From NCBI GenBank assembly GCA_050747865.1, contig JBOGJI010000236.1:11120-75119 (forward strand): a stretch of 64,000 nucleotides of DNA, read 5' to 3'. A program made the position numbers and the translations under genes. This DNA is from Thermoanaerobaculia bacterium. GTDB taxonomy: Bacteria; Acidobacteriota; Thermoanaerobaculia; Multivoradales; JAHEKO01. The notes beneath the pieces are model-generated. The model searched no databases and had not been told where the DNA came from. It saw nothing but the letters and a program-made list of their open reading frames with translations. This document shows positions 7,165-35,177 of the stretch, piece by piece (the first letter of the stretch is position 1; each line of letters starts with the position of its first letter).

Positions 7165-8117
7165 GCGACAGAGGCCCGCCGCGCGCGAAACCAGTCAGCC
7201 GTCCGCGCCAAGCCGTCACGCAGCGTCAACGGCTCCGGAAGTCCCAGCTCGTCCCGAACACGCCGAGAATCAATGCACGAGCGCCGCTGCTCCCCAGGCT
7301 TCGCCGGCCCGTGCACCGCTTCCAGGCGATCCTCCCCGGCCGCCCGCCGCAGCTCCCGATACAGATCGACGACCGAAGTCTCCACCCCCGTACCGACGTT
7401 GTACACATGAAAGCCGCTCCGCCCAAGCGCCGCCACGTTCGCCCGCGCCACGTCGGACACATGCACGTAGTCGCGTGTCTGCAAGCCGTCGCCGTGGATC
7501 GTCGGCGCCTCGCCGGCCAGCAGCCGGTCGAGGAAGATGGCCACCACCCCCGCCTCCCCTTGCGGATTTTGCCTCTCCCCGTAGACGTTGGCGTAGCGCA
7601 GGCAGATCGCGTCGAGCCCGAGCGCGACGTGGAAGTAGTAGAGATACCGCTCGCCGGCCAGCTTCGACACCCCGTAGGGTGACACCGGACGGGTCGGATG
7701 GTCCTCGCCGGCCGGGAACCGCTCCTGCTCCCCGTAGATGGCGCCCCCCGTGGAGGCGAAGATCACCTGCTGCACGCCGCCTTCGACCGCCGCGCGCAAC
7801 AGGTTGAGCGTGCCCACGATGTTGACCTCCGCGTCGAAGCGGGGATCGGCGACCGAGCGGCGCACGTCCATCTGGGCGGCGTGGTGCAGTAGCACGTCGA
7901 AGCCGCCGCCGGAGACGAGCTCGGCGGCCTCCGCGGAGCGGATGTCCAGCTCGACGAGCTCGGCCGCCGCCGGCACGTTCTCCCGCCGCCCCGAAGATAG
8001 ATCGTCGAGGACCACGACCGAATGGCCCGCCGCCAACAGGCTGTCGGCGACGTGCGAGCCGATGAACCCGGCTCCGCCGGTGACGAGGGCGCGTTGAGGC
8101 TTCATGGGGTAGCTCAC
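7161..8117 (-). CDS. NAD-dependent epimerase/dehydratase (UDP-glucose 4-epimerase GalE-like)
   Basis: 318 aa. Rossmann motif VTGGAGFIGSH and catalytic YxxxK (SPYGVSK). Overlaps the sulfatase-like gene by 4 nt. The start could be the internal MKPQ. Confidence 0.8.
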   Translation of the reverse strand: MSYPMKPQRALVTGGAGFIGSHVADSLLAAGHSVVVLDDLSSGRRENVPAAAELVELDIRSAEAAELVSGGGFDVLLHHAAQMDVRRSVADPRFDAEVNIVGTLNLLRAAVEGGVQQVIFASTGGAIYGEQERFPAGEDHPTRPVSPYGVSKLAGERYLYYFHVALGLDAICLRYANVYGERQNPQGEAGVVAIFLDRLLAGEAPTIHGDGLQTRDYVHVSDVARANVAALGRSGFHVYNVGTGVETSVVDLYRELRRAAGEDRLEAVHGPAKPGEQRRSCIDSRRVRDELGLPEPLTLRDGLARTADWFRARRASVA

Positions 8118-8235
8118 GGGGCGGGCTATAGTACCCGCGCATGTCTGGGGGGTCCAAGCCTAGAGCCTGTGAATCCATCTCCCTGGCGCCCTTCGGGTTG
8201 CGGCGGCGTGGCCAGCGGCGCTGCGTTGGCGCTCC

Positions 8236-8721
8236 TTGACGATGCCCACGCATCGACAGCGTCGCGCCGCCTTGCGGCGCTGGCCACGGCGCTCGCAACG
8301 CGACCCACGGGAGATGGATTCACAGGCGCTCCGAGGGTGGCGGAGCCACGCCGCCACCCTCAGCTGGGCCTCGCTCACCGCCGTGGCGCTGCTGGTCCCG
8401 GCGGCGGATCTCGCCGGCTGGATGCCGGCGGTTCCCTGGATGCGCCTGGCCATGGTTTTCGCCGGCTGGGGTCTGGACAAGCTGGTGCACGGGGTGCTGT
8501 TCGGCGTGCTGGCCTGGCTGGCCGCGGGCTCGGCGCGCGTGCTGGCGCTGCGGCGGCCGGCGCTCACAGTCTTTCTCATCGCCGGGCTCTATGCCGTGGC
8601 GTTGGAGGCGGCGCAGCGCTGGGCCCCCGATCGGCGCGCCGACCCGTTCGACCTCGTGGCGGACCTCATCGGCGTCGCCCTGGGGCTCCTGGCCGCCAGG
8701 CGTATACTGCGCCGAGCATGA
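8236..8721 (+). CDS. VanZ-like family membrane protein
   Basis: Hydrophobic ~130-aa core with VanZ-type motifs (DKLVHGVLFGVLAWL ... DLVADLIGVALG). The track start is probably 5'-extended. The stop overlaps the metF ATG (ATGA). Confidence 0.5.
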   Translation: MTMPTHRQRRAALRRWPRRSQRDPREMDSQALRGWRSHAATLSWASLTAVALLVPAADLAGWMPAVPWMRLAMVFAGWGLDKLVHGVLFGVLAWLAAGSARVLALRRPALTVFLIAGLYAVALEAAQRWAPDRRADPFDLVADLIGVALGLLAARRILRRA

Positions 8722-9692
8722 AAGTCCTCGAGCACCTGGAGCGGGCCGACGGCCAGCTCATCAGCTTCGAGATCATCCCGCCGCTCAGGGGCGGGAGCTT
8801 CGAGAAGCTGCGCTCCCTGATCGAGGAGTTGATCGCCCTCGAGCCTCCATTCATCGACATCACCTCCCACGCCGCGCAGATCATGTACGACGAGACGCCG
8901 CAGGGCATCGTGCGGCGCATCAAGCGCAAACGCCCCGGGACCCTCGGCGTCTGTGCGCTCATCCAGAACAAATACAACGTCGACGCCGTGCCCCACGTCA
9001 TCTGCCACGGCTTCACCCGCGAGGAGACGGAAGACTTCCTCATCGAGCTCCACTACCTGGGAATCGACAACGTGCTGGCCATCCGGGGGGACGACTCCGG
9101 CTTCCAGAAACCCTTGCAGTTCGGGCGCACCGCCAACCGCTACGCCGAGGACCTGGTGCGCCAGATCTCCGAGCTGAACCGCGGCAAGTACCTCGAGGAG
9201 GAGCTGCTGGACGCCCAGTCGCTGGACTTCTGCGTCGGCATCGCGGGTTACCCCGAGAAGCACTTCGAGGCGCCGAACATGGAGACCGACCTGCGGTTCA
9301 CCAGGACCAAGGTGGAAGCCGGCGGCGACTACATCGTCACCCAGATGTTCTTCGACAACCGCCACTACTTCCGCTACGTGGAGCGGTGCCGCGAGATCGG
9401 CGTCGAGGTGCCGATCATCCCAGGGCTGAAGATCCTCACCTCGCACAAGCAGGTGACGAGCCTGCCGCGGACCTTCCACTGCGAGGTCCCCGCGGCGCTG
9501 GCCGACGAGGTGCTGGCCGCGGATCCCGACCGCGCCGCCGACATCGGCGTCGAGTGGGCGGTCGAGCAGTCCCGCGAGCTCCTGGAGGCCGGCGTCCCCG
9601 CCCTCCACTTCTACGTCATGCAGAGCGCCCACGCCGTCTCCGAGGTCGTCCGCCGCCTCGACCCCGTACGCGCCACACTCCGCAGCGCCTGA
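8718..9692 (+). CDS. metF: 5,10-methylenetetrahydrofolate reductase
   Basis: ATG at 8718 begins MKVLEHLERADGQLISFEIIPP, the hallmark MetF N-terminus, 324 aa. The track ORF 8022..9692 is an artefactual 5' extension. Confidence 0.85.
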   Translation: MKVLEHLERADGQLISFEIIPPLRGGSFEKLRSLIEELIALEPPFIDITSHAAQIMYDETPQGIVRRIKRKRPGTLGVCALIQNKYNVDAVPHVICHGFTREETEDFLIELHYLGIDNVLAIRGDDSGFQKPLQFGRTANRYAEDLVRQISELNRGKYLEEELLDAQSLDFCVGIAGYPEKHFEAPNMETDLRFTRTKVEAGGDYIVTQMFFDNRHYFRYVERCREIGVEVPIIPGLKILTSHKQVTSLPRTFHCEVPAALADEVLAADPDRAADIGVEWAVEQSRELLEAGVPALHFYVMQSAHAVSEVVRRLDPVRATLRSA

Positions 9693-9903
9693 TCCAGCCC
9701 GGTTGCGAGCGCGGTAACCGCGGTAACCGCGATTGACTTTCGCCGCCGGGTTCCGGTAGCGTCCGCGCCGCATTACGAGCGGTCCGGGGCTCCGCTCCCG
9801 GACACGGCAACCTGGGACCGACACCCAAGGTGCCCACCCGCCGCCCAGGGCGACGGGGATGTGGCCGGAATCGCCGGCAAGCAAATGTTCGGAGGATGGC
9901 TAA

Positions 9904-9934
9904 CCCGCTCGCAATGCCGAGCGGGATTTTTGTT
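9904..9934 (+). promoter_or_regulatory. Terminator/attenuator-like hairpin immediately 5' of the metH start
   Basis: CCCGCTCG-CAATGC-CGAGCGGG stem-loop at 9904-9925, followed by ATTTTTGTT, then ATG at 9935. It sits at the end of a 243-nt metF-metH spacer. Confidence 0.3.
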
Positions 9935-12900
9935 ATGGACACGACGACCTTTCCCGTCCGGATCCCCCCACGGCCGGCCGACCTCGACCAGCGCCGGGCG
10001 GCGCTGGAGGAGGCGCTCACCCGACGCGTCCTGGTGCTCGACGGCGCTACCGGCACTGCGCTGCAGGCCGCCGAGCTGACCGCGGAGGACTTCGGCGGCG
10101 CCGAGCTCGAAGGCTGCAACGAGCACCTGGTGGCGACGCGACCGGACGTCGTGGACGGCGTCCACGAGCGCTATCTCGCCGCCGGCTGCGACATCGTGGA
10201 GACCAACACCTTCGGCGGCACGCCGCTGGTGCTGGCCGAATACGGGCTGGAGACCCAAGCCTTCGAGCTCAACCGCCTGGCCGCCTCGATCGCCCGCGCC
10301 GCCTGCGCCCGACACGACCAGCCGGGCCGGCCGCGCTTCGTCTGCGGCTCCATGGGACCGACGACCAAGGCGATCTCGGTGACCGGCGGCGTCACCTTCG
10401 AGGAGCTGGTCCAGCACTTCCGCATCCAGGCCTTGGGCCTCATGGCCGGCGGCGCCGACTACCTGCTGCTCGAGACCTGCCAGGACACGCGCAACATCAA
10501 GGCCGGGCTGCTGGGGCTCGACGAGGCGTTCGGAGAGTGCGGCTGGCGCCTGCCGGCGGCGGTGTCGGCGACCATCGAGCCCATGGGGACCATGCTGGCG
10601 GGGCAGGACGCCGAGGCCCTGGCGGTCTCCCTGCTGCACGCCGATCTCCTCTACCTGGGCTTGAACTGCGCCACCGGCCCCGACCGCATGACGGATCCCA
10701 TCCGCACGCTCGCCGAGCTGGCGCGCACCCGCGTCGCCTGCGTGCCCAACGCCGGGCTGCCCGACGACGAGGGGCGCTACACCCAGGGTCCGGAGGTCTT
10801 CCGCGAGGTGATCGGCCGCTTCCTCGACGCCGGCTGGCTCAACCTGGTCGGCGGCTGCTGCGGCACCACTGAGGCCCACGTGGCCGCCCTCCGCGAGCTG
10901 GTCGCCGGCCGCCGGCCGCGTGCCCTCCCGCATCACCAGCGCGCCTGGGTCTCCGGCCTCGAGGCCGTCGAGCTGACCGACGACAACCGGCCGCTCTTGG
11001 TGGGCGAGCGCACCAACGTGCTGGGCAGCCGCAAGTTCAAGAGCCTGATCGCCGAAGGCGACTTCGAGGGAGCGGCGGAGATCGGCCGCGCGCAGGTGCG
11101 CGGCGGCGGGCAGGTGCTGGACGTCTGCCTGCAGGACCCCGATCGCGACGAGCTGGCCGACGCCTGCGGCTTCCTCGACCAGCTGGTGCGCCTGGTCAAG
11201 GTGCCGCTGATGCTCGACTCCACCGACGCGGCGGTGATGGAGCAAGCGCTCACCTATTGCCAGGGCAAGGCGGTTCTGAACTCCGTGAACCTGGAGGACG
11301 GTCTGGCGCGCTTTGAGCGGGTGGCGCCGCTGGCCCGCCGCTTCGGCGCCGCCCTGGTCGTCGGCTGCATCGACGAGCAGGGCATGGCGGTGACCCCCGA
11401 ACGCAAGCTCGAGGTCGCGCGCCGCAGCCACGAGCTGCTGACCGAGCGGTTTGGCATCCCGCCCGAAGATCTGTGGTTCGACTCCCTGGTCTTCCCCTGC
11501 GGCACCGGGGACGAGACCTACATCGGCTCGGGCGCCGCCACCATCGAGGGCGTGCGCCGCATCCATGCCGAGTTCCCGCTGTCGAAGACGATTCTCGGCG
11601 TCTCCAACGTCTCGTTCGGGCTGCCCACCGCCGGGCGCGAGGTGCTGAACGCGGTCTTCCTCTACCACGCGACCCGGGCCGGCCTCGACGCGGCGATCGT
11701 CAACACCGAGCGGCTGGCGCGCTACGCGGAGATCCCGCGGGAGGAGCGCGAGCTCGCCGAGCGGCTGCTGTTCCTGGAGCCGGGGGACGTGGCCGGTAGC
11801 GAGGCCGCGGTGGCCGCCTTCGCCGAGCACTTCCGCGGCCGCCAGGCGTCGGCGGTGGCGGCCCCGGACCGCTCGCAGCTGCCCCTGGAAGAGCGGCTGG
11901 CGCGGGCCATCGTCGAAGGCACGAAAGCGGGCCTGGAGGAGGACCTGAGCGCGGCGCTCGCCGACGAGCGCTGGCGCGCGGCGCTGGACATCATCAACGG
12001 TCCCTTGATGGCGGGTATGGCCGAAGTGGGCCGGCTGTTCAACGACAACCAGCTCATCGTCGCCGAGGTGCTGCAGTCGGCCGAGGTGATGAAGGCCGCG
12101 GTGTCGTTCCTCGAGCCGCACATGGAGACCGTCGGCGGCCACAACCGGGGCCGCGTGGTGCTCGCCACCGTCAAGGGAGACGTCCACGACATCGGCAAGA
12201 ACCTAGTGGAGATCATCCTCTCGAACAACGGCTTCGAGGTGGTGAACCTGGGGATCAAGGTCCCCAGCGAGCAGCTCATCGAGGCGGTGCGGCGGCACCG
12301 GCCGGACGTCATCGGGCTCTCGGGGCTGCTGGTCAAGAGCGCCCAGCAGATGGTGCTGACGGCGGAGGACTTCCGCGCCGCCGGCCTCACCGTGCCGCTT
12401 TTGGTCGGCGGCGCGGCGTTGACACGCCGGTTCACCCACAAGAAGATCGCCCCGGCCTACGGGGCGCTGTGCACCTGGGCACGCGACGCCATGCACGGCC
12501 TGCAGCTCGTCGAGCGCATCGTCAACCTCGAGGCGCGGGGCGAGCTCGAGGCTGAGATCGCCGAGCTGATGTCCGAGGACCAGCAGGCGGGGGAGGCGCC
12601 GGCTCCCGTCGGCCCGACCCCCGGCGGCCGGGCGCCTTCGGTGCGCACCGACGTCGACGTGCCGGCGCCGCCGGATCTCGACCGCCACGTGGAAGAGCTG
12701 GACCTCGACGCCGTCTGGTCCCTGCTCAATCCGCAGATGCTCTACGGCAAGCACCTCGGCTTCAAGCGCTCGGTCTATCGCGCCGCCGACGAGGGCGACG
12801 GCAAGTACCTGCGACTCGCCCGCCTGGTGGAGGAGCTCCAGGAGCTGGGTCGGTCAGGGGCCCTCGAGGCGGCGGCCGTGTGGCAGTTCTTCCGCGCCGA

Positions 12901-13429
12901 GACCGAAGGCGAGCGCCTGCGGCTGCTGGCGCCGAACGGCGGCGGAGCGGTCGCCGAGTGGGAGCTGCCCCGCCAGCGCGCCCGCGAGGGCCTCTGCCTG
13001 ACCGACTACGTGCTCGCCGGCGACCACGTGGCGCTGTTCGTCACCACCGCCGGCGCCGGCGTGCTCGAACGGGCCCGGCGGTGGAAAGAGGAGGGGGAGT
13101 ACCTCAAGAGCCACGCCTGGGCGGCGCTGGCCCTGGAGACCGCGGAGGCCGCCGCCGAGCTGCTGCACGAGCGCCTGCGCGCGGCCTGGGGCATCGCCGA
13201 CCCGCCGGAGCTGCCAGTGCGCGACAAGCTGGCGGCGCGCTACCGCGGCAAGCGCTACAGCTTCGGTTATCCGGCCTGCCCGGACCTCGCCGGCCAGCGC
13301 GCCCTGTTCGCCGCCCTCCGGCCGGAGGAGATCGGCGTGCACCTGACCGAGGGCGACATGATGGAGCCCGAGGCCTCGGTCTCCGCCCTCGTCTTCCACC
13401 ACCCCGACGCCCGCTACTTCGGCGTCTGA
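9935..13429 (+). CDS. metH: Cobalamin-dependent methionine synthase
   Basis: Homocysteine-binding, pterin-binding, B12-binding (GDVHDIGKNLV) and AdoMet-activation modules are present, ~1164 aa. The track ORF starts at 9830; ATG 9935 (MDTTTFPV) is preferred, and 9896 is an alternative. Confidence 0.9.
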   Translation: MDTTTFPVRIPPRPADLDQRRAALEEALTRRVLVLDGATGTALQAAELTAEDFGGAELEGCNEHLVATRPDVVDGVHERYLAAGCDIVETNTFGGTPLVLAEYGLETQAFELNRLAASIARAACARHDQPGRPRFVCGSMGPTTKAISVTGGVTFEELVQHFRIQALGLMAGGADYLLLETCQDTRNIKAGLLGLDEAFGECGWRLPAAVSATIEPMGTMLAGQDAEALAVSLLHADLLYLGLNCATGPDRMTDPIRTLAELARTRVACVPNAGLPDDEGRYTQGPEVFREVIGRFLDAGWLNLVGGCCGTTEAHVAALRELVAGRRPRALPHHQRAWVSGLEAVELTDDNRPLLVGERTNVLGSRKFKSLIAEGDFEGAAEIGRAQVRGGGQVLDVCLQDPDRDELADACGFLDQLVRLVKVPLMLDSTDAAVMEQALTYCQGKAVLNSVNLEDGLARFERVAPLARRFGAALVVGCIDEQGMAVTPERKLEVARRSHELLTERFGIPPEDLWFDSLVFPCGTGDETYIGSGAATIEGVRRIHAEFPLSKTILGVSNVSFGLPTAGREVLNAVFLYHATRAGLDAAIVNTERLARYAEIPREERELAERLLFLEPGDVAGSEAAVAAFAEHFRGRQASAVAAPDRSQLPLEERLARAIVEGTKAGLEEDLSAALADERWRAALDIINGPLMAGMAEVGRLFNDNQLIVAEVLQSAEVMKAAVSFLEPHMETVGGHNRGRVVLATVKGDVHDIGKNLVEIILSNNGFEVVNLGIKVPSEQLIEAVRRHRPDVIGLSGLLVKSAQQMVLTAEDFRAAGLTVPLLVGGAALTRRFTHKKIAPAYGALCTWARDAMHGLQLVERIVNLEARGELEAEIAELMSEDQQAGEAPAPVGPTPGGRAPSVRTDVDVPAPPDLDRHVEELDLDAVWSLLNPQMLYGKHLGFKRSVYRAADEGDGKYLRLARLVEELQELGRSGALEAAAVWQFFRAETEGERLRLLAPNGGGAVAEWELPRQRAREGLCLTDYVLAGDHVALFVTTAGAGVLERARRWKEEGEYLKSHAWAALALETAEAAAELLHERLRAAWGIADPPELPVRDKLAARYRGKRYSFGYPACPDLAGQRALFAALRPEEIGVHLTEGDMMEPEASVSALVFHHPDARYFGV

Positions 13430-13935
13430 GCCTCGGGTGAGGTTTCGCGAAGGCGGGTGGTCTCGCGCTGGACCATGTCGATGGTCTGGCGCATGAACTT
13501 GAGGATCAGCTCGAGCTGGCCGGCGCTGTATTGCTCGCACTGGGCGGACCAGCTCTGCTGGATGCCCTCGAACAGGGGGGCGACCTGCGAGTCTGTGCAC
13601 TCGGTGTTGACGAGGAGCAGGATCCGCCGGCGGTCCTTGGGGTCGATCTCGCGGCGCAGGAAGCCGGCCCGCTCCAGGCGGTCGGCGACGCCGGTGATGG
13701 CGCCGCTGGTCAGGCCGGTGGCTTTGGCCAGCTCGCCGGCCGATATCGGCCCGAGCTCGCGCAGGATGTCGAGACATTTCTGGTCGGTGGGGTGGAGCCC
13801 CAGCCGGTCCGCCACCGCCTGGTGGAACAGCACCGTGGCCCGTGCCTGGTGCCGCCCCGCCCAGCGCAGCTCCTCCATGAGCTGGCGCTTCTTCCCGTCA
13901 TCGTCGCCGTTCGCGCTCGTCTTCCTGCTTGACAT
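13414..13935 (-). CDS. MarR family transcriptional regulator
   Basis: 173 aa. Winged-HTH region ISAGELAKATGLTSGAITGVADRLERAGFLRREIDPKDRRR. Divergent from the efflux operon. Its 3' end overlaps metH by 16 nt. Confidence 0.8.
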   Translation of the reverse strand: MSSRKTSANGDDDGKKRQLMEELRWAGRHQARATVLFHQAVADRLGLHPTDQKCLDILRELGPISAGELAKATGLTSGAITGVADRLERAGFLRREIDPKDRRRILLLVNTECTDSQVAPLFEGIQQSWSAQCEQYSAGQLELILKFMRQTIDMVQRETTRLRETSPEAQTPK

Positions 13936-14166: not shown

Positions 14167-15558
14167 GTGTGGAGGAGCAAGCGACACGTGACTAGACGAC
14201 GCCTGATCATCGGCCTGTTGAGCGGCGCCCTGATCGCGCCCGGCGCGCGGGCGGCAGAGCGCCTCGACCTGCAGGCGGTTGTCCAGCGGGCGCTGGAGAA
14301 CAACCCGGACTATCTCGCCATCGCGGAGCGGGAGCGCGAGCTCGCGGCCCAGATCGACGCGGCTTGGGCGGACGCCTGGCCGCAGTTCTCGCTGAACGGG
14401 TTCTGGAACCGCTCGCGCAACCCGTCGTTGCTCAACAGCCCCGACTTCGAGGACATCATCGAGCAGTTCCCCGGTTTCAGGCCGAGCGTCCAGGAGCTGA
14501 ACGGGCTCAACGTGGAGGTCAGCCAGCTGCTCTACACGTTTGGCAAGATCCGCTCCGGCGTCGAGCTGGCCGAGCGTGCCGTCGAGGCGGGGAAGGCGCA
14601 GACCCAGACGGCCCTCCTCGACACCGCGCTGACGGCGGCGGAGGCGTATTTCGAGCGGCTCGCGGCTCAGGAGGCCCTGATCACCATCGACGCGCAGCGG
14701 CGGGCGCGGCAGGAGTCGCTCGACGTCGTGCAGGCCCGCTTCGATCTCGGCGACGCGACGCGCCTGGAGCTGCTACAGGCGCAAGCCGCCCTCGCCGAGG
14801 TCGAGCCGGCGGTGGCGGCCGCCGAGGGCCGTGTGGCGGTGGCGGAGAGCACCCTTGAGTCGGTGCTCGACCTGCCGTCGGAGAGTGAGGTGGAGGTGGT
14901 GCCGCCGACCTCCGGCCTTCCCGCCGTGCCGCAGATGCCGCCGTTGCTGGAAACGGCGCTGCGCTCGCGTTCGGAGCTGGCCGACCTGGCCCGCCAGCAA
15001 GAGGCGCTGGAGCTGCAGAAGCGCGTGGTCAAGGCCGACGGGCGCCCCCAGCTCGAGCTGACCGGCAACTACGGCCGCACGGTGCGCGAGCTCGAGAACT
15101 TGGACGATCCGCTGTTCGCGGACTGGCAGGTCAACGTGGGGCTCTCCTGGAGCTTTTTCGACGGCGGCCGGCGAGCCGGCGAGGTCGCCGCCTTGAGCAG
15201 CCAGCAGCGCCAGCTCGCGCTGCAGACGAAGGCCCTCGAAAACCGCATCCGGCTGGAGATCGAGCAGTCCTGGACCGGGTATCGCACCGAGCGGGATCGC
15301 CTGCGCGCCGCCGAGCGGTCGGCCGAGGCGGCGCGCGAGGCGACGCGGGTGGCCAGGGAGAGCTACGAGGAAGGCGTGTCCCTGCAGGCGGACTTGTTGG
15401 CGGCGCAGGAGCGGGAGACCGAGGCCGAGGTGGCCCGCGTCGAGGCCTACTATGGAGCCTGGCGCCAGGCGACGCGGCTCGTGCGTGCCACGGGGATGCG
15501 GCCGGATGGGTTGGGAGAGCTAGGGAACGGCGGCACGACGCCGCCCGTCGAGGAGTGA
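14167..15558 (+). CDS. TolC-family outer-membrane efflux protein
   Basis: 463 aa with paired OEP repeats. The likely true start is GTG at 14188, giving a VTRRRLIIGLLSGALIAPGARA signal peptide. Confidence 0.8.
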   Translation: MWRSKRHVTRRRLIIGLLSGALIAPGARAAERLDLQAVVQRALENNPDYLAIAERERELAAQIDAAWADAWPQFSLNGFWNRSRNPSLLNSPDFEDIIEQFPGFRPSVQELNGLNVEVSQLLYTFGKIRSGVELAERAVEAGKAQTQTALLDTALTAAEAYFERLAAQEALITIDAQRRARQESLDVVQARFDLGDATRLELLQAQAALAEVEPAVAAAEGRVAVAESTLESVLDLPSESEVEVVPPTSGLPAVPQMPPLLETALRSRSELADLARQQEALELQKRVVKADGRPQLELTGNYGRTVRELENLDDPLFADWQVNVGLSWSFFDGGRRAGEVAALSSQQRQLALQTKALENRIRLEIEQSWTGYRTERDRLRAAERSAEAAREATRVARESYEEGVSLQADLLAAQERETEAEVARVEAYYGAWRQATRLVRATGMRPDGLGELGNGGTTPPVEE

Positions 15559-15562
15559 AGTC

Positions 15563-16639
15563 ATGAGCACGAAGTGGAATCTGTTGACCCGGCGGTCGTC
15601 CGCCGCGGCGATCGTCTTCGCGGCCGGCACCCTGGCCGCCTTGCTCGGCGGTTGCGGCGCGGACGAGGTGCCGGCGGCGAGCAACGGAAACGTCACCGAG
15701 GAGCGGCTCACCCAGGTCCAGGTGGAGGCGGTGGAGCCGCGGCCCGCCGTCGAGACCATCGAGGTCGCGGCGGATGTGCTGGCCGACCGGCGCGCGACGC
15801 TGGCGGCGGAGGTGGCGGGGACCGTCGAGGCGGTGGAGGCGGATCTCGGTGATCGGGTGGGCGCCGGCGCGGTGCTCATCCGCATCGACACCAGCGGCAT
15901 CGCCACCGAGGTGGAGGAGGCGGAGGCCAACTTCCGGCAGGCCGAGGAGGATGCCGCCCGCGCCGAGGCCCTGTTCGAGAAGCGCTCGATCACCCGCGAC
16001 CGGCTGACCGCCGCGCGCACCGCGCTCGACGTGTCGCGGGCGCGCCTGGAGTCGGCGCATATCCGGCTCGGCGACTTGACGGTGCGCGCCCCCTGGGCCG
16101 GCGAGGTCGCCTCCCGCATGGTCGAGGTCGGCGACTACGTGGACGTCGGCGACGGCATGCTCGAGCTGGTGGCCGTCGATCGCCTGAAGATCCGCGCCGA
16201 GGTGGCGGCGGAGGACGCCCAATACATCGAGCAGGGAGAGCCCGCCACCCTGCGGCTGCAGGCCCTGCCCGGCGAGATCTTCGAGGCCGAGGTCGTGCGC
16301 ATCGGCGCCTCGCTGACCTCCACCTCGCGCACCCTGCCGATCGAGGTCGAGCTGGCGAACCCGGGCGGCCGCCTCAAGCCCGGCATGTTCGGGCGTCTGA
16401 CACTGCCCCGGCGGCAGCTCGAGGCGGCGTTGCTGGTGCCGCTGGCGGCGCTGGTCGACTACGAGGACGGCAAGGTCGTCTACGTGGTCGAGGACGGGGT
16501 GGCGCGGCGGCGGCCGGTCACGCCGGGGGCGGTGATCGGGGAGCGGGTGGCCGTCGAGGAGGGGCTCGCCGCCGGAGATCGGGTGATCGTTCGCGGTCAG
16601 GACCAGGTCGCCGACGGGCAGCAAGTGGAGGTCGTATGA
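15563..16639 (+). CDS. RND efflux periplasmic adaptor (membrane fusion protein, HlyD family)
   Basis: 358 aa. Lipoprotein signal LLGGC, followed by coiled-coil and beta-barrel MFP regions. Lies 4 nt after the TolC-like gene. Confidence 0.85.
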   Translation: MSTKWNLLTRRSSAAAIVFAAGTLAALLGGCGADEVPAASNGNVTEERLTQVQVEAVEPRPAVETIEVAADVLADRRATLAAEVAGTVEAVEADLGDRVGAGAVLIRIDTSGIATEVEEAEANFRQAEEDAARAEALFEKRSITRDRLTAARTALDVSRARLESAHIRLGDLTVRAPWAGEVASRMVEVGDYVDVGDGMLELVAVDRLKIRAEVAAEDAQYIEQGEPATLRLQALPGEIFEAEVVRIGASLTSTSRTLPIEVELANPGGRLKPGMFGRLTLPRRQLEAALLVPLAALVDYEDGKVVYVVEDGVARRRPVTPGAVIGERVAVEEGLAAGDRVIVRGQDQVADGQQVEVV

Positions 16640-19600
16640 GCCGGCTCACCGATGTCTCGTTGAAGCACCGCGCGACGGTGTTCTTCTCGATGCTGGTGGT
16701 GATCATCGCCGGCCTCTTCGCCTACTTGACTCTGCCGCGGGAGTCGAGCCCGGACGTCCAGATCCCGATGATCATCGTCTACACCCTCTACCCGGGGGCG
16801 GCGCCGGCCGATATCGAGTCGATCATCACCGAGCCGATCGAGCGCGAGCTCCAGGGCCTGGAGGACATGAAGGAGCTCACTTCGGTCTCCCAGGAGTCGG
16901 CGTCAGTGGTGACCATCGAGTTCGAGTCCGGCACCGACATCGACGACGCCCGGCAGAAGGTGCGCGACCGGGTGGACCAGGCGAAGGTGGACTTCCCCGA
17001 CGACGCCGAGGAGCCGGTGCTGCAGGAGATCAACTTCTCGGAGTTCCCCGTGGTACAGGTCAACCTGGCTGGGGACGTCGGACCGGCGGTGCTCAAGGAG
17101 CTGGCCGAGGACCTCCAGGACGAGCTGGAAACCGTGCCCGGCGTGCTGCGCGTCAACCTGGTCGGCGGCCTGGAGCGCGAGGTGCGCGTGGACGTCGACC
17201 TCGATCGTCTCAACTCCTACGGTCTCTCCCTCGACGCCATCGTGGGGGCCATCGGCCGCGAGAACGTGGCCATCCCGGGCGGTGATCTCGACGTGGGCGA
17301 TCAGAGCTTTTCGGTGCGCGTCCCCGGGGAAGTGGAGAACCCGCTGGAGATCGCCGACTTCGTGGTGAGCGCCAAGGGGGGCAACCCAGTGTACGTCCGC
17401 GACGTCGCCACTGTGACCTACGGCTTCAAGGACCGCGAGTCGCACGCCCGCATCAACGGCCAGGAGTCCGTCGCCGTGACGGTGCAGAAGCGCCTCGGCG
17501 CCAACATCATCGACGTCGTCGACGCGGTGAAGACCCAGGTGGCCGAGGAGCAGGAGAGCTGGCCGGCGAGCGTCAGAGCCACCGTCCTCGGCGACCAGTC
17601 GCGGGACATCCGCAACATGGTCGCTGACCTGGAGAACAACATTCTCTCCGGCCTCATCCTGGTGGTGGCGGTCTTGCTGCTCGCCATGGGCTTCCGGCCG
17701 GCGCTCTTCGTCGGCCTGGCGATCCCGTTTTCCATGCTGATCACGTTCTTCGTGTTGCAGGCCACCGGCGTCACCCTGAACATGGTGGTCCTGTTCGCCC
17801 TGGTGTTGGCGGTCGGCATGCTGGTCGACAACGGGATCGTGGTGGTGGAGAACATCTACCGCCACATGCAGGAGGGGAGCCTGCCGGACACGGCGGCATC
17901 GATCGCCACCCGGGAGGTCGGCGCGGCCATCCTCTTCTCGACCCTCACGACCTTCGCCGCCTTCTCGCCGCTCTATTTCTGGCCCGGGATCGTCGGCGAC
18001 TTCATGGTCTACATGCCAATGACAGTGTCGATCGCGCTCGGCGCCTCCCTGCTCGTGGCGTTCACCATGAATCCCGTGCTCTGCGCCCGCTTCCTCAAGG
18101 CGGCCCCGCGTTCCGCGGCCGCGGCAGGGGGCGAGGTGGCGGGGTGGCGGGGGAGCTGGGGGGCTGGGATCCTCGAGCGCTATCGCGGGATCCTCGGCTG
18201 GGCGCTCGATCACCGCTTGGCGACGGTCAACCTGGCGATCGGGGTCTTCGTGCTGATGTTCGTGCTCTTCGGCATGTTCGGCCCCGGCGTGGAATTCTTC
18301 CCAGAGACCGAGCCGACGCAGATCTTCGTCGACGTGGAGCAGCCGGCGGGCACCCGGCTGGAGGCGACGGACGAGCTGGCGGTGGAGCTGGAGGAGCGCC
18401 TGGAAGGACTGCCCGACGTCAACCTCCTGGCCTCCTCGGTGGGCGCCGGCAGCCAGAACGACTTCGGGGGCGGCCAGGGGGGCGGCGACTCCAATGTGGC
18501 GCGGCTGACCATCGACCTGCTCGAGCGCGAGGACCGCGAGCAGAACTCCTTCCTGACCATGGATCAGGTGCGCGAGCGCACCGCGGGGATCCCCGGCGCC
18601 ATCATCGAGGTGGACCGCCTCGAGGACGGCCCGCCGGTTGGGGAGCCGGTGCAGATCGAGGTCAGGGGCGAAGACTTCGCGACCCTCGGCGCGATCTCCC
18701 GGCGGATCCGCGAGTCCATCCGCGACATCGACGGGCTGGTGTCTCTGGACGACGACTTCGACCTGGCGCGGCCGGAGGCGCGGCTGCACGTGGACCGCAC
18801 CCAGGCGGCGCGCTTCGGGCTGTCGACGGCGGACATCGCCACGGCGGTGCGCACGGCGGTCAGCGGCACGGAGGCCTCGGAGTACCGCCGGCCCGGCCGC
18901 GACGAGGAGGACATCACGGTGCGGCTGCGCGAGGCGGATCGGCGGTCGCTCGCCGACCTGGAGCGCCTGCGCCTGCCGACGGCCTCGGGCGAGCTGGTGC
19001 CGCTGACCGCGGTGGCACGGCTCGAACGCACGGCGGCGCTCACGGCGATCAACCACAAGGAGCGGGATCGCGTGGTCACCATCACCGGGGACGTGACGAA
19101 CCCCACCTTGGCGCGGCCGGTGCGCGCGGAGGCGCAGCGGCGGCTGGAGGCGATCCGCGACCTGCTGCCAACGGGCTACCGGATGGAGTTCACCGGCGGC
19201 AGCGAGGACGAGCAGGAAGCGCAGGCGTTCCTCTCCAAGGCCTTCCTCTACGCTCTGTTGCTGGTGCTGGCGCTCCTGGTGGCGAAGTTCGACTCCCTGA
19301 AGCTCTCCGCCATCGTGATGACCTCGGTGGTCATGTCGATGGTCGGCGTGTTCTTCGGGCTGCTCGTCACCCGCCTGCCGTTCGGCATCATCATGACCGG
19401 CCTGGGAGTCATCTCGCTGGCCGGAGTGGTAGTGAACAACGCCATCGTGCTGCTCGACTACGGCGAGCAGCTGCGCGAGCGGGGTCTGCCGCGGCGCGAG
19501 CTGGTGATGCTCACGGGGCTACGGCGTTTCCGGCCGGTGATGCTGACGGCGGTGACCACGATTTTGGGGCTCATCCCCCTGGCCACGGGTTTCGGCTTCG

Positions 19601-19857
19601 ATTTCCGGAACTTCGTGTTCGTGACCGGGGGGGAGAGCTCGCAGTGGTGGAAGGGGCTGGCCATCGCCGTCATCTTCGGCCTGGCGCTGGCGACCTTCCT
19701 CACCCTGGTCGTGGTGCCGGTGCTCTACGACCTGGTGCTCGCCGGGCACGAGCGGCGGGCGCGCAAGCGCGGCGCCGGCGGGGACGAAGACGTCAACGGC
19801 GAGCTCGAGGATTCCCTGGCGGCTCTGGAGCGCGACGAAGGCGTCCTGGTCAGCTGA
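16636..19857 (+). CDS. RND efflux permease (AcrB/CzcA family)
   Basis: 1073 aa with 12 predicted TM segments and two large periplasmic loops. Typical AcrB N-terminus MSRLTDVSLKHRATVFFSMLVVIIAG. Overlaps the MFP gene by 4 nt. Confidence 0.9.
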   Translation: MSRLTDVSLKHRATVFFSMLVVIIAGLFAYLTLPRESSPDVQIPMIIVYTLYPGAAPADIESIITEPIERELQGLEDMKELTSVSQESASVVTIEFESGTDIDDARQKVRDRVDQAKVDFPDDAEEPVLQEINFSEFPVVQVNLAGDVGPAVLKELAEDLQDELETVPGVLRVNLVGGLEREVRVDVDLDRLNSYGLSLDAIVGAIGRENVAIPGGDLDVGDQSFSVRVPGEVENPLEIADFVVSAKGGNPVYVRDVATVTYGFKDRESHARINGQESVAVTVQKRLGANIIDVVDAVKTQVAEEQESWPASVRATVLGDQSRDIRNMVADLENNILSGLILVVAVLLLAMGFRPALFVGLAIPFSMLITFFVLQATGVTLNMVVLFALVLAVGMLVDNGIVVVENIYRHMQEGSLPDTAASIATREVGAAILFSTLTTFAAFSPLYFWPGIVGDFMVYMPMTVSIALGASLLVAFTMNPVLCARFLKAAPRSAAAAGGEVAGWRGSWGAGILERYRGILGWALDHRLATVNLAIGVFVLMFVLFGMFGPGVEFFPETEPTQIFVDVEQPAGTRLEATDELAVELEERLEGLPDVNLLASSVGAGSQNDFGGGQGGGDSNVARLTIDLLEREDREQNSFLTMDQVRERTAGIPGAIIEVDRLEDGPPVGEPVQIEVRGEDFATLGAISRRIRESIRDIDGLVSLDDDFDLARPEARLHVDRTQAARFGLSTADIATAVRTAVSGTEASEYRRPGRDEEDITVRLREADRRSLADLERLRLPTASGELVPLTAVARLERTAALTAINHKERDRVVTITGDVTNPTLARPVRAEAQRRLEAIRDLLPTGYRMEFTGGSEDEQEAQAFLSKAFLYALLLVLALLVAKFDSLKLSAIVMTSVVMSMVGVFFGLLVTRLPFGIIMTGLGVISLAGVVVNNAIVLLDYGEQLRERGLPRRELVMLTGLRRFRPVMLTAVTTILGLIPLATGFGFDFRNFVFVTGGESSQWWKGLAIAVIFGLALATFLTLVVVPVLYDLVLAGHERRARKRGAGGDEDVNGELEDSLAALERDEGVLVS

Positions 19858-19957
19858 CCCCTTCGCCTGAAGCGGCCGGCTTCCGTGCCGGCCGTGGCGC
19901 GCGGCCGGCAGAGACGCCGGCCGCTTCGGGTCCCATCGCAGCTACTACGATAGGCAC

Positions 19958-21097
19958 GTGGTCGACGCTGGCTTCGATCGTGTGCATGTCACCTACCGGT
20001 TTCCGCTGACCGCGGGCGAAGACCCGAAGGCCCGCGCGCGGGAGATGGCGCGGGAGCAGACGGTGGAGGTGCCGGAGGGGTGCTTTCCGCCGGAGTTCGA
20101 GGGTGCGGTGGTGGCCGAGGTGGCGGGTGTGGAACGCGTGGGCGAGGGCGTTGTGGAGGTGCGGCTCACCTACTCGCGGGAGGTCGCCGGGGGCGGGGTG
20201 CCGCAGCTCTTGAACCTGCTGCTGGGCAACGTGTCGATGTTCGAGCGGGTGCGGGTGGTGGACATCGGGTGGCCGGATTGGGTGGGGGAGATCGCGGCCG
20301 GGCCGGCCTTCGGGGTCGACGGGGTGCGCCGGCTCACGGGTGTGTTCGGGCGGCCGCTGCTCGCCACCGCGGTGAAGCCGCTGGGCCACACGGTCGAAGA
20401 GCTCGCCCGCCGCTGTCGGGAGTTCGTGCTCGGCGGCCTGGACATCGTGAAGGACGACCACTCCCTGGCCGACCAGGAGTGGGCGCCGTTCGCCGAGCGC
20501 GTGGCGCGCTGCCAGGAGGCGGTGGCGAAGGCGGGCGGCGAGGCCGGGTCGGAGGCGCTCTACGTGCCGCACCTGAGCGGGCCGTTCGAGGAGCTGCCGT
20601 GGCGCGTCGAGCGCTTGCGGGCCCTGGGCTGCCGGGCGGTGATGGTCCATCCGGCCATCCTCGGGTGGGACGTCGTGCGCTGGCTCGCAGCCGAGTCCGG
20701 GCTCGCAGTCTTCACCCACCCCACGTTCTCGGGACCCCTGTGGGCTGTCCCGGATACCGGCATCGCCCCCGAGATCCTGCTCGGCGACCTCCTGCGTCTG
20801 CTCGGCTCCGACGTCGTGGTATACCCGAACGCCGCCGGGCGGTTTCCCATTACGCTGCAGGAGGTGAATGCAATCGCCGCCCGCCTGCGCCGGCCGTGGG
20901 AGGGTATACGGCCGGCCCTACCGATGCTCGGAGGCGGCATCGACCTCGAACGCGTGGGAGAGTGGGCGTCACGTTTCGGCCCCGACACCGTCCTTCTCGT
21001 CGGCTCGAGCCTTTACGCCCAGGGCGACCTGCGCGCCGCCTCCTCCCGCCTACGCCAGGCAATTGAGACGCGATCCATAGGACGACACAGTTCATAA
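19958..21097 (+). CDS. RuBisCO-like protein (form IV RLP, RuBisCO large-subunit family)
   Basis: 379 aa. Carries GNVSMF...VVDIGWP, GRPLLATAVKPLG, GGLDIVKDDHSL (K201-equivalent retained, E204 replaced by H) and MLGGGID (the phosphate-binding GG loop). The N-terminal E60/T65/W66 carboxylase residues are absent and the N-domain is ~35 residues shorter. Confidence 0.75.
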   Translation: MVDAGFDRVHVTYRFPLTAGEDPKARAREMAREQTVEVPEGCFPPEFEGAVVAEVAGVERVGEGVVEVRLTYSREVAGGGVPQLLNLLLGNVSMFERVRVVDIGWPDWVGEIAAGPAFGVDGVRRLTGVFGRPLLATAVKPLGHTVEELARRCREFVLGGLDIVKDDHSLADQEWAPFAERVARCQEAVAKAGGEAGSEALYVPHLSGPFEELPWRVERLRALGCRAVMVHPAILGWDVVRWLAAESGLAVFTHPTFSGPLWAVPDTGIAPEILLGDLLRLLGSDVVVYPNAAGRFPITLQEVNAIAARLRRPWEGIRPALPMLGGGIDLERVGEWASRFGPDTVLLVGSSLYAQGDLRAASSRLRQAIETRSIGRHSS

Positions 21098-21193: not shown

Positions 21194-21580
21194 CTACCAG
21201 ACCAGCTCGACGTCGTATGCGCTGAGCTTCGGATCCGCCGTCAGAATCGGAACCCGCTCATGCTGCGCCTGGGCGACCAGCATGCGGTCGAAGGGATCCC
21301 GATGATGCAGGGGCAGCTCGGCTACGCGGGCGCAGTGCTTGTGGCCGATCGGGAGCAGCTCGACACCCTGGTCGGTGACGAGCTCCGCGTACAGGCGCTC
21401 CAGGGGCCGGCCCAGCTCGAGCTTGCCGGTACGGAGCTTGACCGCGATCTCCCACGAGCTCGCGATGCTCCAGAGCAGCTCGTTGGCGCCGTCTTTCAGG
21501 ATTGCGTGGGCATGCCCCGATAGCCGCGTGTCGTCCCGCAGCCACCAGAGCATCGCGTGCGTGTCGACGAGGACCCTCAA
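21194..21580 (-). CDS. vapC: Type II toxin VapC (PIN-domain ribonuclease)
   Basis: 128 aa. PIN acidic residues are in register (VLVDTHAMLWW ... ILTAD). Overlaps the upstream antitoxin gene by 4 nt. Confidence 0.85.
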   Translation of the reverse strand: MRVLVDTHAMLWWLRDDTRLSGHAHAILKDGANELLWSIASSWEIAVKLRTGKLELGRPLERLYAELVTDQGVELLPIGHKHCARVAELPLHHRDPFDRMLVAQAQHERVPILTADPKLSAYDVELVW

Positions 21581-21810
21581 GGCTCAAGCGGCTCCAGCCA
21601 CGCCTCGTCGAGCTCTTCGTTGAAATCGTCCGCGATGCGCAGGCTGTCCCGCCAGGTGCCTGGCCGGCGTTCTGCAGCAGGGGGGGCGATGCGCACCAGG
21701 CGCGCCACCCGCCTGCCGTAGCGGGCGATGACCACTTCTTCACCAGCCTCGACCAGGGTCAGCAGGCGGGAGAGCTGGGTCTTCGCCTCCTGCACATTCA
21801 CGACCGTCAT
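21577..21810 (-). CDS. vapB: Type II antitoxin VapB (Phd/YefM family)
   Basis: 77 aa. N-terminus MTVVNVQEAKTQLSRLLTLVEAGEEVVIARYGRRVARLV is typical of Phd/YefM antitoxins. Confidence 0.8.
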   Translation of the reverse strand: MTVVNVQEAKTQLSRLLTLVEAGEEVVIARYGRRVARLVRIAPPAAERRPGTWRDSLRIADDFNEELDEAWLEPLEP

Positions 21811-24254: not shown

Positions 24255-26258
24255 CTACCGCTCGTTTCCGGTGTCTCTCTGGGGGAATCCCTCGATGCCG
24301 AACTCGGCGAGGACGGCGGCGGCCAGGTCCTGAAGATCGGTCACCTCACGCGACAGCTTGCGGTTGGCGAACAGGATGCCCGGCACGGTGACCGAGTCCA
24401 TGTGATGGTGGCCGGTCCAGCCGCTGGTGTTGTTGGCCATCAACTCGGGGGACAGCTCACCGAGGCCGGATGCGTTGGCGTTGCCGTAGGTTCTGGCGTA
24501 GCCGATCACGGCGTCGGGGCCGACGTCCATGTATCCCCGGTCGTGGAAAGCCTTCTCGCTGATGAAGACTCGGCGAACGACTCGCTGCCCGTTCTCCGGA
24601 TCGACCACCTTCTCGAGCTTGGAGGCGATCTCCTCGAGCAGCGCCATCCTCTTCGATTCCGGCACCACGCCGTCCCGTTCGCGGCCCGCCAGGTTCACGT
24701 ATAGGCCGTTGACGCCGATGCCGTAGGCGCGCGTACGCGACCAGTCGGCGTTGGCAAAGATCGTCGCGTTGCGCCCCGGGGCAGGCGGCTTGGAGAGCAC
24801 CAGGTATCCCTCCTGCTCGAGCCAGGTGTTCAGGTTGAAAGCCCGGCGCCAGGGGGCGAAGCCGTGGTCCGACATGACGATCACCGTGGCCTCCGGGCCG
24901 GCCTTCTCCAGCGTCTTGCCCACGATTGCGTCGGCCTCTTCATAGAGCTGCGGGATCACCCATGCGTACTTCGGATCGGCTTGCGGATCGTCGCCCGGGT
25001 ACTCCGGATCCATCGATCCCCACAGGATGTGGCCCAACTGGTCCGTGTGGCCGAAGTAGTAGAAGAGCAGGCCCGAACGGAACCGTTCGAGCACGGGATC
25101 GAGTTGCTCTTCGATCTCCTCGCGGGCGATCTTCGCCTGGGCGAGAAACTCGTCCACGCTGAGCGCGTCTTCCGTCAACCCCTTGGTGTCCTCTGGGAAG
25201 CCCTGGGTGTAGAAGCGGCCGGTCGCGTCCGCCAGCTCGGCAGCGAACTCCTCCGGCGTGGTGATCGGCATGATCGGCGCGTAGGGGTCGAGGTTGATGG
25301 GACTGACGTACAGCTCCACCTCGGGACGGACGCTCCTCAAGTAGAAGCGGGCCTGGCCGGCGAGCTTCTGCGTCGGGACCATCTCGAACTCGACCGGCAC
25401 CCAGTTCGACCACTCGTCGGTCGCGAGCAGCCGCTCCTCGTCGCCGACGCGCAGCAGCGCCGCCGGCTCTTCGGGGTCGACGAAGAGCTGAAACTCGATC
25501 GTCAGGTCCTCGGGCTCCTCGAGGAACAGGTTCGGCGGGCCGTGCAGCTCACCGGTGGCGATGTCATCCCAGTAGTCGACCGGATAGAAGGCGCCGCCGC
25601 CCACCGTCCGTTCCTCGGAGAAGGGATCGGAGTTGTAGAACGAGAAGGTTCCGGCGGTGCCCACGATGTCCGGGGTGCCCATGCCCGAGAGCTCGTGGTC
25701 GGCGGTGCCCGTCGGCGGGAAGTTGGCCGGGATGCGCATCACGGTGGTCGGGACCCCGCGCTCGCGCAGCAGCTCCCAGAACGCCGTGCCGTGGCGCAGC
25801 AGCTCGACCTCGCCACCGCCCAGCGGGATTCGCCACTTGCCGAGGGTGAGCCCAGCGTCCGACCCCTCCGTACGGCTGGTCGACTCGTAGGGGATCCGGG
25901 TACTGGGGTCGCGGTGCACGAAGTCGAAGATGCCGTGACCGCCGGAGTCCATGCCGGTGATGAAGTCGGACCACGCCACCGGCGAAAGCGGCGGGATCGA
26001 GCTTCCCAGGGGCTGCGCCATGCCCTGCCGCGCCAAGCGCTGGAAGTTGGGCATGCGCCCTTCCGCCATCAGCTTCTGCACCAGCTCCCAGTCCATCCCA
26101 TCGAACCCCAGCACGACCACCCGCCGGCTGGACTCGGAAGACTCAGACGGCGCCCTCTGGCAGCCAATCGTCGCGATCAACAAGAGACCGGCGACCACAG
26201 CCAGTGCGACTGGCGCCAATGCTGGGCGCGGTGCCCCGCCCCGGCCCGACCACGACAC
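24255..26258 (-). CDS. Alkaline-phosphatase-superfamily enzyme (type I phosphodiesterase/nucleotide pyrophosphatase-like), lipoprotein
   Basis: ~667 aa from the GTG at 26258. Lipobox LLLIATIGC; metal-site motifs VVVLGFDGMDWE and MSDHGF. It is a paralog of the next gene. The track ORF to 26909 is a 5' frame artefact. Confidence 0.6.
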   Translation of the reverse strand: MSWSGRGGAPRPALAPVALAVVAGLLLIATIGCQRAPSESSESSRRVVVLGFDGMDWELVQKLMAEGRMPNFQRLARQGMAQPLGSSIPPLSPVAWSDFITGMDSGGHGIFDFVHRDPSTRIPYESTSRTEGSDAGLTLGKWRIPLGGGEVELLRHGTAFWELLRERGVPTTVMRIPANFPPTGTADHELSGMGTPDIVGTAGTFSFYNSDPFSEERTVGGGAFYPVDYWDDIATGELHGPPNLFLEEPEDLTIEFQLFVDPEEPAALLRVGDEERLLATDEWSNWVPVEFEMVPTQKLAGQARFYLRSVRPEVELYVSPINLDPYAPIMPITTPEEFAAELADATGRFYTQGFPEDTKGLTEDALSVDEFLAQAKIAREEIEEQLDPVLERFRSGLLFYYFGHTDQLGHILWGSMDPEYPGDDPQADPKYAWVIPQLYEEADAIVGKTLEKAGPEATVIVMSDHGFAPWRRAFNLNTWLEQEGYLVLSKPPAPGRNATIFANADWSRTRAYGIGVNGLYVNLAGRERDGVVPESKRMALLEEIASKLEKVVDPENGQRVVRRVFISEKAFHDRGYMDVGPDAVIGYARTYGNANASGLGELSPELMANNTSGWTGHHHMDSVTVPGILFANRKLSREVTDLQDLAAAVLAEFGIEGFPQRDTGNER

Positions 26259-26272
26259 CGGATGTGCGCCGC

Positions 26273-28456: not shown

Positions 28457-28594
28457 CGGTTGGCGCAGGACCGTACCGTCGGGATCGATTTCGGTTGGGA
28501 GTGGGTCCGCCGTCGCCTGACGAGGGAGCCGTCCGAGTCACTCGCTGCCCGTGAGACCGGTGCCCGGGCGTTTGGATGGTATAGGGTTTGCCGG

Positions 28595-33518: not shown

Positions 33519-35177
<1,659 letters not shown>

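Follow-up and report, generated by a model that had tools for sequence, protein, structure and literature searches.

A RuBisCO-like protein, very probably of the DeepYkr type, in an apparently rearranged methionine locus of a Thermoanaerobaculia bacterium

What might a RuBisCO-like protein (RLP) be doing right behind the genes of an efflux pump? The question is raised by a stretch of 64,000 nucleotides from a Thermoanaerobaculia bacterium, analysed here in its whole length and henceforth called the window. Its forward strand carries, at positions 19958..21097, an open reading frame with a GTG start that codes for 379 amino acids. The product is identical to MGH9381376.1, a GenBank protein from a Thermoanaerobaculia metagenome-assembled genome (MAG), and the codon-position GC pattern of the gene is like that of its neighbours (GC3 0.88). 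A preliminary description of this DNA had read it as a stand-alone form IV RLP, wedged between an RND permease gene and a vapBC pair. It had also taken the KDDH motif of the active site, in which a glutamate ligand of the metal is replaced by histidine, as unusual and as the mark of a divergent reaction.

That the protein belongs to the RuBisCO large-subunit superfamily is the easier part of the answer. The profile search proposed at the time assigns it there: the Pfam model PF00016 (RuBisCO_large) recognises it with 73.5 bits (E=2.3e-20), above a cut-off of 30.1, and the motifs then quoted, GNVSMF, AVKPLG, DIVKDDHS and MLGGGID, are all present. Structural modelling, also proposed, goes the same way. 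The AF2 model, built with 20 relatives as input, has a pLDDT of 91.5. Compared by Foldseek with RLP and RuBisCO chains it gives TM scores of 0.85-0.91, and its top fold match in the PDB is 3qfw (TM 0.91, rmsd 2.0 Å). By its PF00016 match and its predicted fold, then, the protein is a member of this superfamily.

Is it a carboxylase? Forms I-III require a catalytic set made of E60, T65, W66, N123, K175, K177, K201, D203, E204, H294, R295, H327, K334, S379, G380 and G381. We mapped these positions by aligning the protein to the form III enzyme of P. horikoshii (2cwx), an alignment that runs over the full length and includes the N-terminal domain, which is present in our RLP. Six residues are shared outright, E33 standing for E60, N91 for N123, K140 for K175, K165 for the carbamylatable lysine K201, D167 for D203 and H254 for H294, and the glycine pair G326, G327 keeps G380, G381. 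The remainder of the set is altered. V38 and P39 replace T65 and W66, H168 replaces E204, P255 replaces R295, V288 replaces H327, R295 replaces K334, G325 replaces S379, and K177 is lost, with no counterpart in the protein. The pattern described earlier around the metal site (K175, K201 and D203 kept, K177 not kept, E204 changed to H) is thus recovered, as is the absence of T65 and W66. The E60 segment, by contrast, had been thought to be missing. It is not: the stretch AREQTVEVP aligns to ASESSIGTW of 2cwx, and E33 is invariant within the DeepYkr-type family discussed below. With its catalytic residues replaced, the protein is not expected to carboxylate, and it reads, as first proposed, as a non-carboxylating form IV protein. 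A bona fide carboxylase of forms I-III was rejected as a candidate because the catalytic set is incomplete; the form III model TIGR03326, which asks for 497 bits, gives it 131.

Which RLP is it, then? Among PDB sequences the top match is 3QFW, an RLP of 378 residues from Rhodopseudomonas palustris (E=1e-54, 189.6 bits). The MtnW enolases, which come next (E=1e-38, 136 bits), and the form III enzymes trail it clearly, and identity is 35% to 3QFW vs 31-33% to MtnW. A database search brings up over 300 relatives, each some 370 residues long, and a scan restricted to one genome per species finds a relative in at least 582 species-representative genomes. JGI labels one of them S-methyl-5-thioribulose 1-phosphate isomerase, and also uses the name "ribulose-bisphosphate carboxylase large chain" for relatives. 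No NCBIfam model claims our protein, those for MtnW, form III and OiaX all scoring far under their cut-offs; OiaX, the RLP decarboxylase of the apiose pathway, was rejected because its model, NF042437, requires 700 bits and gives 74.5. In a neighbour-joining tree rooted on two MtnW (YkrW) sequences, and drawn with the Photo, NonPhoto, GOS and AMC clades left out, 3QFW is nested inside the family of our protein and MtnW is the outgroup. Conservation can also be counted. In 60 cupin-linked sequences, 62 columns reach a conservation of 90% or more; the protein agrees with the family at 58 of these columns and departs from it at four (A157V, N193G, C303V, G350S). The signature residues N91, K140-P141, K165-D-D-H168, H254-P255, G294-R295-F296 and G326-G327 are in place, and every position that separates the DeepYkr-type family from MtnW is kept. 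All this makes it very probable that the protein belongs to that family.

The histidine that had looked so odd now finds its place. K165-D166-D167-H168 is invariant among 20 diverse aligned relatives (20/20), a histidine stands at the E204 position in 86/86 locus sequences, and 3QFW also carries KDDH. Because of this invariance and of its presence in 3QFW, the change from E204 to H is the normal signature of the DeepYkr-type family and not an oddity of this gene, so that the divergent reaction suggested earlier loses its ground.

What members of this family do has been worked out in two organisms. The DeepYkr RLPs of R. rubrum (Rru_A1998) and R. palustris (RLP1) are 1,3-isomerases of 5-methylthioribulose-1-phosphate, MTRu-1-P (PMC5893883; PMC4958253). 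The kcat of the R. palustris enzyme is 1.3 s-1 (PMC5893883). The reaction makes MTXu-5-P and MTRu-5-P in a ratio of about 3:1, a result published only for R. rubrum and for R. palustris RLP1 (PMC5893883). In the MTA-isoprenoid shunt, a cupin frees the methylthio group of 1-methylthioxylulose-5-phosphate, which yields DXP (PMC5893883; PMC4958253). 3QFW appears to be the RLP1 paralogue assayed in PMC5893883, since 2QYG is titled rlp2 and 3QFW falls among cupin-linked sequences.

Our protein resembles Rru_A1998 and R. palustris RLP1 in its length (about 370-380 residues, with a short N-terminus), in KDDH, in the equivalents of N123 and E60, in the H-P, G-G-R-F and G-G-G motifs, and in linkage to methionine genes. 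It differs in that its identity to 3QFW reaches only the value given above, in that its host belongs to another phylum (Acidobacteriota, class Thermoanaerobaculia), in the four substitutions just listed and in its position behind an RND efflux operon, not in an RLP-cupin pair. By analogy with these two enzymes, the protein is likely to act in vivo as an MTRu-1-P 1,3-isomerase in an MTA salvage route. Mg2+ would be bound by carbamylated K165 and by D167, H168 occupying the position of the third ligand, as in Rru_A1998 and RLP1. The substrate would be 5-methylthio-D-ribulose-1-phosphate, the product of MtnA, derived from the SAM by-product MTA. A 1,3-proton transfer would then make 1-methylthio-D-xylulose-5-phosphate. 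In the full shunt the cupin would follow, releasing the methylthio group towards methionine, together with DXP.

Together, the RLP and this cupin, the 1-methylthioxylulose-5-phosphate methylsulfurylase, define the MTA-isoprenoid shunt. We assembled a neighbourhood set of 80 genome loci (designated by L-numbers), called their ORFs and clustered the neighbours. A cupin is fused to the RLP or lies directly downstream of it in 58 of the 80; two of the other 22 are too short to judge, which leaves 58 of 78 evaluable loci with the cupin and 20 where it is missing from the RLP locus, the window and its nearest relatives being among these. The linked cupin has about 135-145 residues, is encoded on the same strand and mostly overlaps the RLP gene by 4 nt; fusions are seen in five loci (L046, L058, L069, L079, L083). 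A profile built on the linked cupins brings up proteins whose name at NCBI and JGI is S-methyl-(1-)thioxylulose 5-phosphate methylthiotransferase. Nitrococcus and Halorhodospira, two genera named for the RLP-cupin gene organisation (PMC4958253), are represented in our set by L019 (45% identity) and L043 (43%), both with the cupin. Methionine-salvage genes surround the RLP in further family loci: MtnA adjoins it in L076 and L077, and L001, from the Holophagales, reads RLP-cupin-O-acetylhomoserine sulfhydrylase-MetX-aspartokinase. A split transketolase adjoins RLPs in loci from Chloroflexota and Actinomycetota. In the window, no cupin of the linked family was found within the 64 kb (hmmsearch --max), nor was MtnA (IF-2B) or MtnP, in keeping with the earlier remark that pathway partners are absent from this stretch. 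Ten cupin candidates, from the best 120 of more than 5568 profile matches, were compared with the accession range of MGH9381376.1, and none falls within it.

Why does the gene stand alone? The preliminary description had mentioned that metF and metH lie upstream and left it undecided whether this was meaningful. Comparison of the window genes with related loci by tblastn suggests that it is. In the window, metF (8022..9692, forward strand; PF02219, E=3.9e-60) has its MTHFR domain at residues 238-546, and relatives match the ORF only at residues ~205-547; the true start of the gene is probably downstream of the ORF start. The gene for cobalamin-dependent methionine synthase, metH, follows on the same strand (ORF 9830..13429), with all five MetH Pfam domains, and is 70-87% identical to the metH found upstream of the RLP in six related loci (L003, L006, L008, L017, L022, L037). 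Next come a marR-family regulator on the reverse strand (13414..13935; PF01047), divergent from the efflux operon, and that operon itself, OEP-MFP-RND, on the forward strand (14167-15558, 15563-16639 and 16636-19857; PF02321, PF16576 and PF00873). The RLP starts 100 nt after the end of the permease gene, in the same orientation, as had been described. Beyond it, on the reverse strand and convergent with it, are vapC (PIN; 21194-21580) and vapB (PhdYeFM; 21577-21810), identified from their ORFs and from Pfam assignments made on the called genes of an identical Logan contig. Further away, about 10 kb from the RLP, is a pair formed by a PBP1 gene (30997-33435, reverse strand) and an ABC-F ATPase gene (33519-35177, forward strand), both assigned by Pfam.

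Related genomes display this order in several states. Two of them (L022, L037) read metF-metH-RLP-cupin, followed at some distance by ABC-F(-) and PBP1(+). Three others (L003, L008, L017) have metF-metH-RLP and the same ABC-F(-)-PBP1(+) pair, without the cupin; in L008 a subtilase gene stands between metH and the RLP. None of these five contains the pump cassette, and metH is upstream of their RLP, directly adjacent to it in four. The pump appears in L020 and L073, which read OEP-MFP-RND, then RLP-ABC-F-PBP1, and in the arrangement metH-marR(-)-OEP-MFP-RND-RLP that the window shares with L006, with metF before metH in the window, while the L006 sequence begins inside metH. L005 begins at marR, in the same position as it has in L006 and the window, and then follows the window order. 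The pump cassette is 83% identical to that of the window in L005 and L006, and 64-65% identical in L020 and L073. Seven loci (L003, L008, L017, L020, L022, L037, L073) have the ABC-F(-)/PBP1(+) pair, which would anchor the ancestral syntenic block, at 0.5-5 kb downstream of the RLP; L005 alone shares the genes that come in between in the window, an amino-acid permease and two PF01663 phosphodiesterases. The vapBC pair is missing from all relatives; in L005, L006 and L007 the RLP is followed by other genes, and the pair would be, by this comparison, an insertion specific to the window.

The simplest reading of these arrangements makes the RLP of the window a positional orthologue of the one in a SAM-controlled metH-RLP-cupin operon. 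The marR-OEP-MFP-RND cassette would have entered downstream of metH and upstream of the RLP, the cupin would have been lost from the locus in the lineage of the window, and vapBC would have been inserted downstream; to these events, as synteny suggests them, the gene would owe its stand-alone look. The wedged position is as it had been described; on this reading it comes from the rearrangement of a conserved metF-metH-RLP(-cupin) block and is no sign of a new role.

Control by SAM is suggested by an RNA element. A local search of the window finds a SAM-I/IV riboswitch-like element upstream of metH, at 9765..9894 on the forward strand, with a score of 37.1 bits (E=2.3e-4), under the Rfam gathering score of 41.1; the true start of metH is probably located after this element. 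In L022 and L037, the two loci with the complete order, a SAM-I/IV riboswitch scoring above the gathering score precedes metH, and matches below it occur at the equivalent place in L008 (39.8 bits) and L003 (27.3 bits).

Selection on the gene can be gauged as well. Compared with its orthologues in L005 and L006, which are 81-82% identical, it displays a dN/dS of 0.18-0.22 over a dS of about 0.67, a ratio equal to that of the adjacent RND gene. With a value of about 0.18 the RLP is under purifying selection, and the gene is therefore preserved although no cupin stands next to it.

This persistence is what gives some weight to another interpretation: with the same fold and the same proton transfer, the protein might use another substrate, or feed another downstream route, in lineages devoid of the cupin. 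Two examples come to mind. The substrate could be 5-deoxy-D-ribulose-1-phosphate, derived from 5'-deoxyadenosine, the by-product of radical-SAM enzymes, and converted directly to DXP with no need of a cupin, or 1-methylthioxylulose-5-phosphate could be passed to an enzyme that is not a cupin. Besides purifying selection in the absence of a neighbouring cupin, the 20 cupin-less loci among the 78 evaluable ones speak for it, as does a deep cupin-less subclade in which the linked genes are instead MtnA, a split transketolase and, in a single case, a radical SAM gene (L076, L072, L062). Yet active-site and signature residues are identical between cupin-linked and cupin-less members. Furthermore, loci of both kinds are interleaved in the tree and have one syntenic block in common, which fits a simple relocation or lost adjacency, and the cupin may sit elsewhere in the genome. 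We hold this general possibility to be unlikely, though the least unlikely of those that compete with MTRu-1-P isomerisation in MTA salvage. Its more precise version, in which the RLP of cupin-less lineages has left the cupin-dependent shunt altogether, either making DXP from 5-deoxyribulose-1-phosphate or handing 1-methylthioxylulose-5-phosphate to an unrecognised enzyme other than a cupin, for example the split transketolase, is a little less likely still. If true, it would amount to an undescribed salvage route for SAM by-products; a literature search returned no papers on RLP-transketolase clusters or on the MTA-isoprenoid shunt in Acidobacteria.

The neighbourhood of the pump might also be given a functional meaning, the RLP having been recruited to a MarR-controlled RND efflux operon for a role in stress or detoxification tied to the pump. 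Indeed, the order and orientation of RND and RLP are kept in five genomes (window, L005, L006, L020, L073), with a gap of about 25-100 nt in the first three (about 25 nt at the L005 junction). Against this, another ORF or a GH127 gene intervenes between pump and RLP in L020 and L073, metH and no pump stands upstream of the RLP in five related genomes, and no known RLP chemistry is linked to efflux. The window also has a very stable, GC-rich hairpin between the stop codon of the RND gene and the start of the RLP (19865..19931, forward strand), an inverted repeat with 29-nt arms. It folds with a minimum free energy of -66.8 kcal/mol (z=-5.2), a stability that none of 200 shuffled sequences matches. 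The hairpin is without a U tract, and it may possibly be a terminator, an attenuator or a structure of the mRNA end. Its comparison with Rfam gives only chance-level matches to miRNA and CRISPR-repeat families, a scan for promoter and terminator consensus sequences around the RLP gene finds nothing, and a dispersed REP-like repeat was rejected as an explanation, the hairpin being present in a single copy in the window. On balance, a role tied to the pump is improbable, far more so than a change of substrate.

Still less credible is the canonical alternative, an MtnW/YkrW-type enolase acting on 2,3-diketo-5-methylthiopentyl-1-phosphate in methionine salvage. PRK09549 (MtnW) is the top NCBIfam model for the protein (E=4.6e-52), and MtnW (form IV-YkrW; PDB 2OEK, 4NAS, 2ZVI), at the 31-33% identity already cited, shares with it the RLP fold, the carbamylatable lysine, the D203 equivalent and, if the prediction is right, a function in methionine salvage from MTA. 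However, the scores stay well below what MtnW models demand (NF007095, 177 bits vs a cut-off of 409; TIGR03332, 130 vs 514). At the positions that matter, MtnW, which has about 410 residues, carries K where our protein has N (N123), KDDE where it has KDDH and G-S-V where it has G-R-F; and no mtnB, mtnX or mtnD is found nearby. A decaying relic, left behind after the loss of its cupin partner, is just as hard to believe: the 64 kb do contain no partner gene and the RLP has been displaced from a riboswitch-controlled operon, but its frame is intact, it matches 58 of 62 conserved positions, its model reaches a pLDDT of 91.5 and its dN/dS of 0.18 over a dS of about 0.67 is that of the RND gene.

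The interpretation from which we started is thus partly supported. What the locus teaches about this acidobacterial group is that its RLP would ancestrally have belonged to a SAM-riboswitch metH-RLP-cupin operon. About a quarter of the family loci lack an adjacent cupin. The DeepYkr family is very widespread, being represented in at least 582 species, and the protein of the window would be a new member of an RLP family that has already been characterised. Its practical value lies in a correction of annotation: the protein is of a type that would isomerise in methionine/SAM salvage, and carboxylase-type labels could pass for evidence of carbon fixation in MAGs of Acidobacteriota.

The methionine genes upstream of the gene for the RuBisCO-like protein (RLP) may begin elsewhere than at their called starts. 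Between metF and metH lies an element resembling a SAM-I/IV riboswitch (9765-9894), which scores 37.1 bits, just below the gathering score of 41.1, and which has counterparts in four of the loci carrying relatives of the window RLP (L022, L037, L008 and L003). The metH ORF, as mechanically called from 9830, shares its first 65 nt with this element, so the real start of metH is probably located further downstream. The metF ORF (8022-9692) encodes 556 aa, with the MTHFR domain restricted to residues 238-546, and its relatives align only from about residue 205 onward. Its N-terminal part is either the outcome of a miscalled start in high-GC sequence or an unannotated N-terminal extension.

Closer to the RLP gene, a GC-rich hairpin (19865-19931), nested and perfect-looking, with 29-nt arms, begins 8 nt after the stop codon of the RND permease gene. 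It folds at -66.8 kcal/mol (z=-5.2 against shuffled sequences). It is devoid of a U tract, it matched no Rfam family and no second copy was found within the 64-kb window. In L005, the locus of a close syntenic relative, the RND-RLP junction is shorter and does not have the hairpin. On the other side of the gene, and convergent with it, vapC (PIN) and vapB (PhdYeFM) occupy the minus strand (21194-21810). This pair looks like a recent toxin-antitoxin insertion: L005, elsewhere syntenic with the window, has no vapBC, and there an amino-acid permease gene is directly 3' of the RLP gene. A sulfatase gene, a tandem pair of PF01663 genes (phosphodiesterase/alkaline-phosphatase superfamily) and a sulfotransferase-domain ORF are also present in the window (5239-7164 and 24255-29212); the tandem pair and the sulfotransferase-domain ORF are shared with L005.

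Within the family at large, five loci encode RLP and cupin as a single ORF of 526-573 aa, the cupin being C-terminal (L046 1394-3100, L058 6407-8014, L069 9995-11575, L079 1157-2743 and L083 9980-11698). The hosts are Firestonebacteria/FCPU426 and magnetotactic Nitrospirota. Both enzymes belonging to the MTA-isoprenoid shunt are joined here in a Rosetta-stone fusion. On a Holophagales chromosome (L001 10001-15711), RLP and cupin are followed by a Cys/Met PLP enzyme of the O-acetylhomoserine sulfhydrylase type, a MetX-like alpha/beta hydrolase and aspartokinase, a compact cluster spanning the shunt and methanethiol re-assimilation. In a Planktophila MAG (L082 923-4021), a class II aldolase-SDR fusion directly 5' of RLP is similar to the DHAP shunt's Ald2 type. 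That shunt, too, consumes methylthioribulose-1-phosphate, so that two alternative fates of this metabolite may be encoded side by side.

Finally, a deep-branching RLP subclade (Chloroflexus, Anaerolineaceae, Acidimicrobiaceae) is without the cupin. At three loci, RLP lies behind a split transketolase, with N and C subunits (L076 6943-11098, L072 7887-11089 and L062 3530-6492). The first of these also has MtnA and a SorC-type regulator, the last RbsD and a radical SAM gene. A literature search for a link between RLP and transketolase found no paper; this cupin-less, transketolase-linked subclade may be an undescribed variant of salvage.
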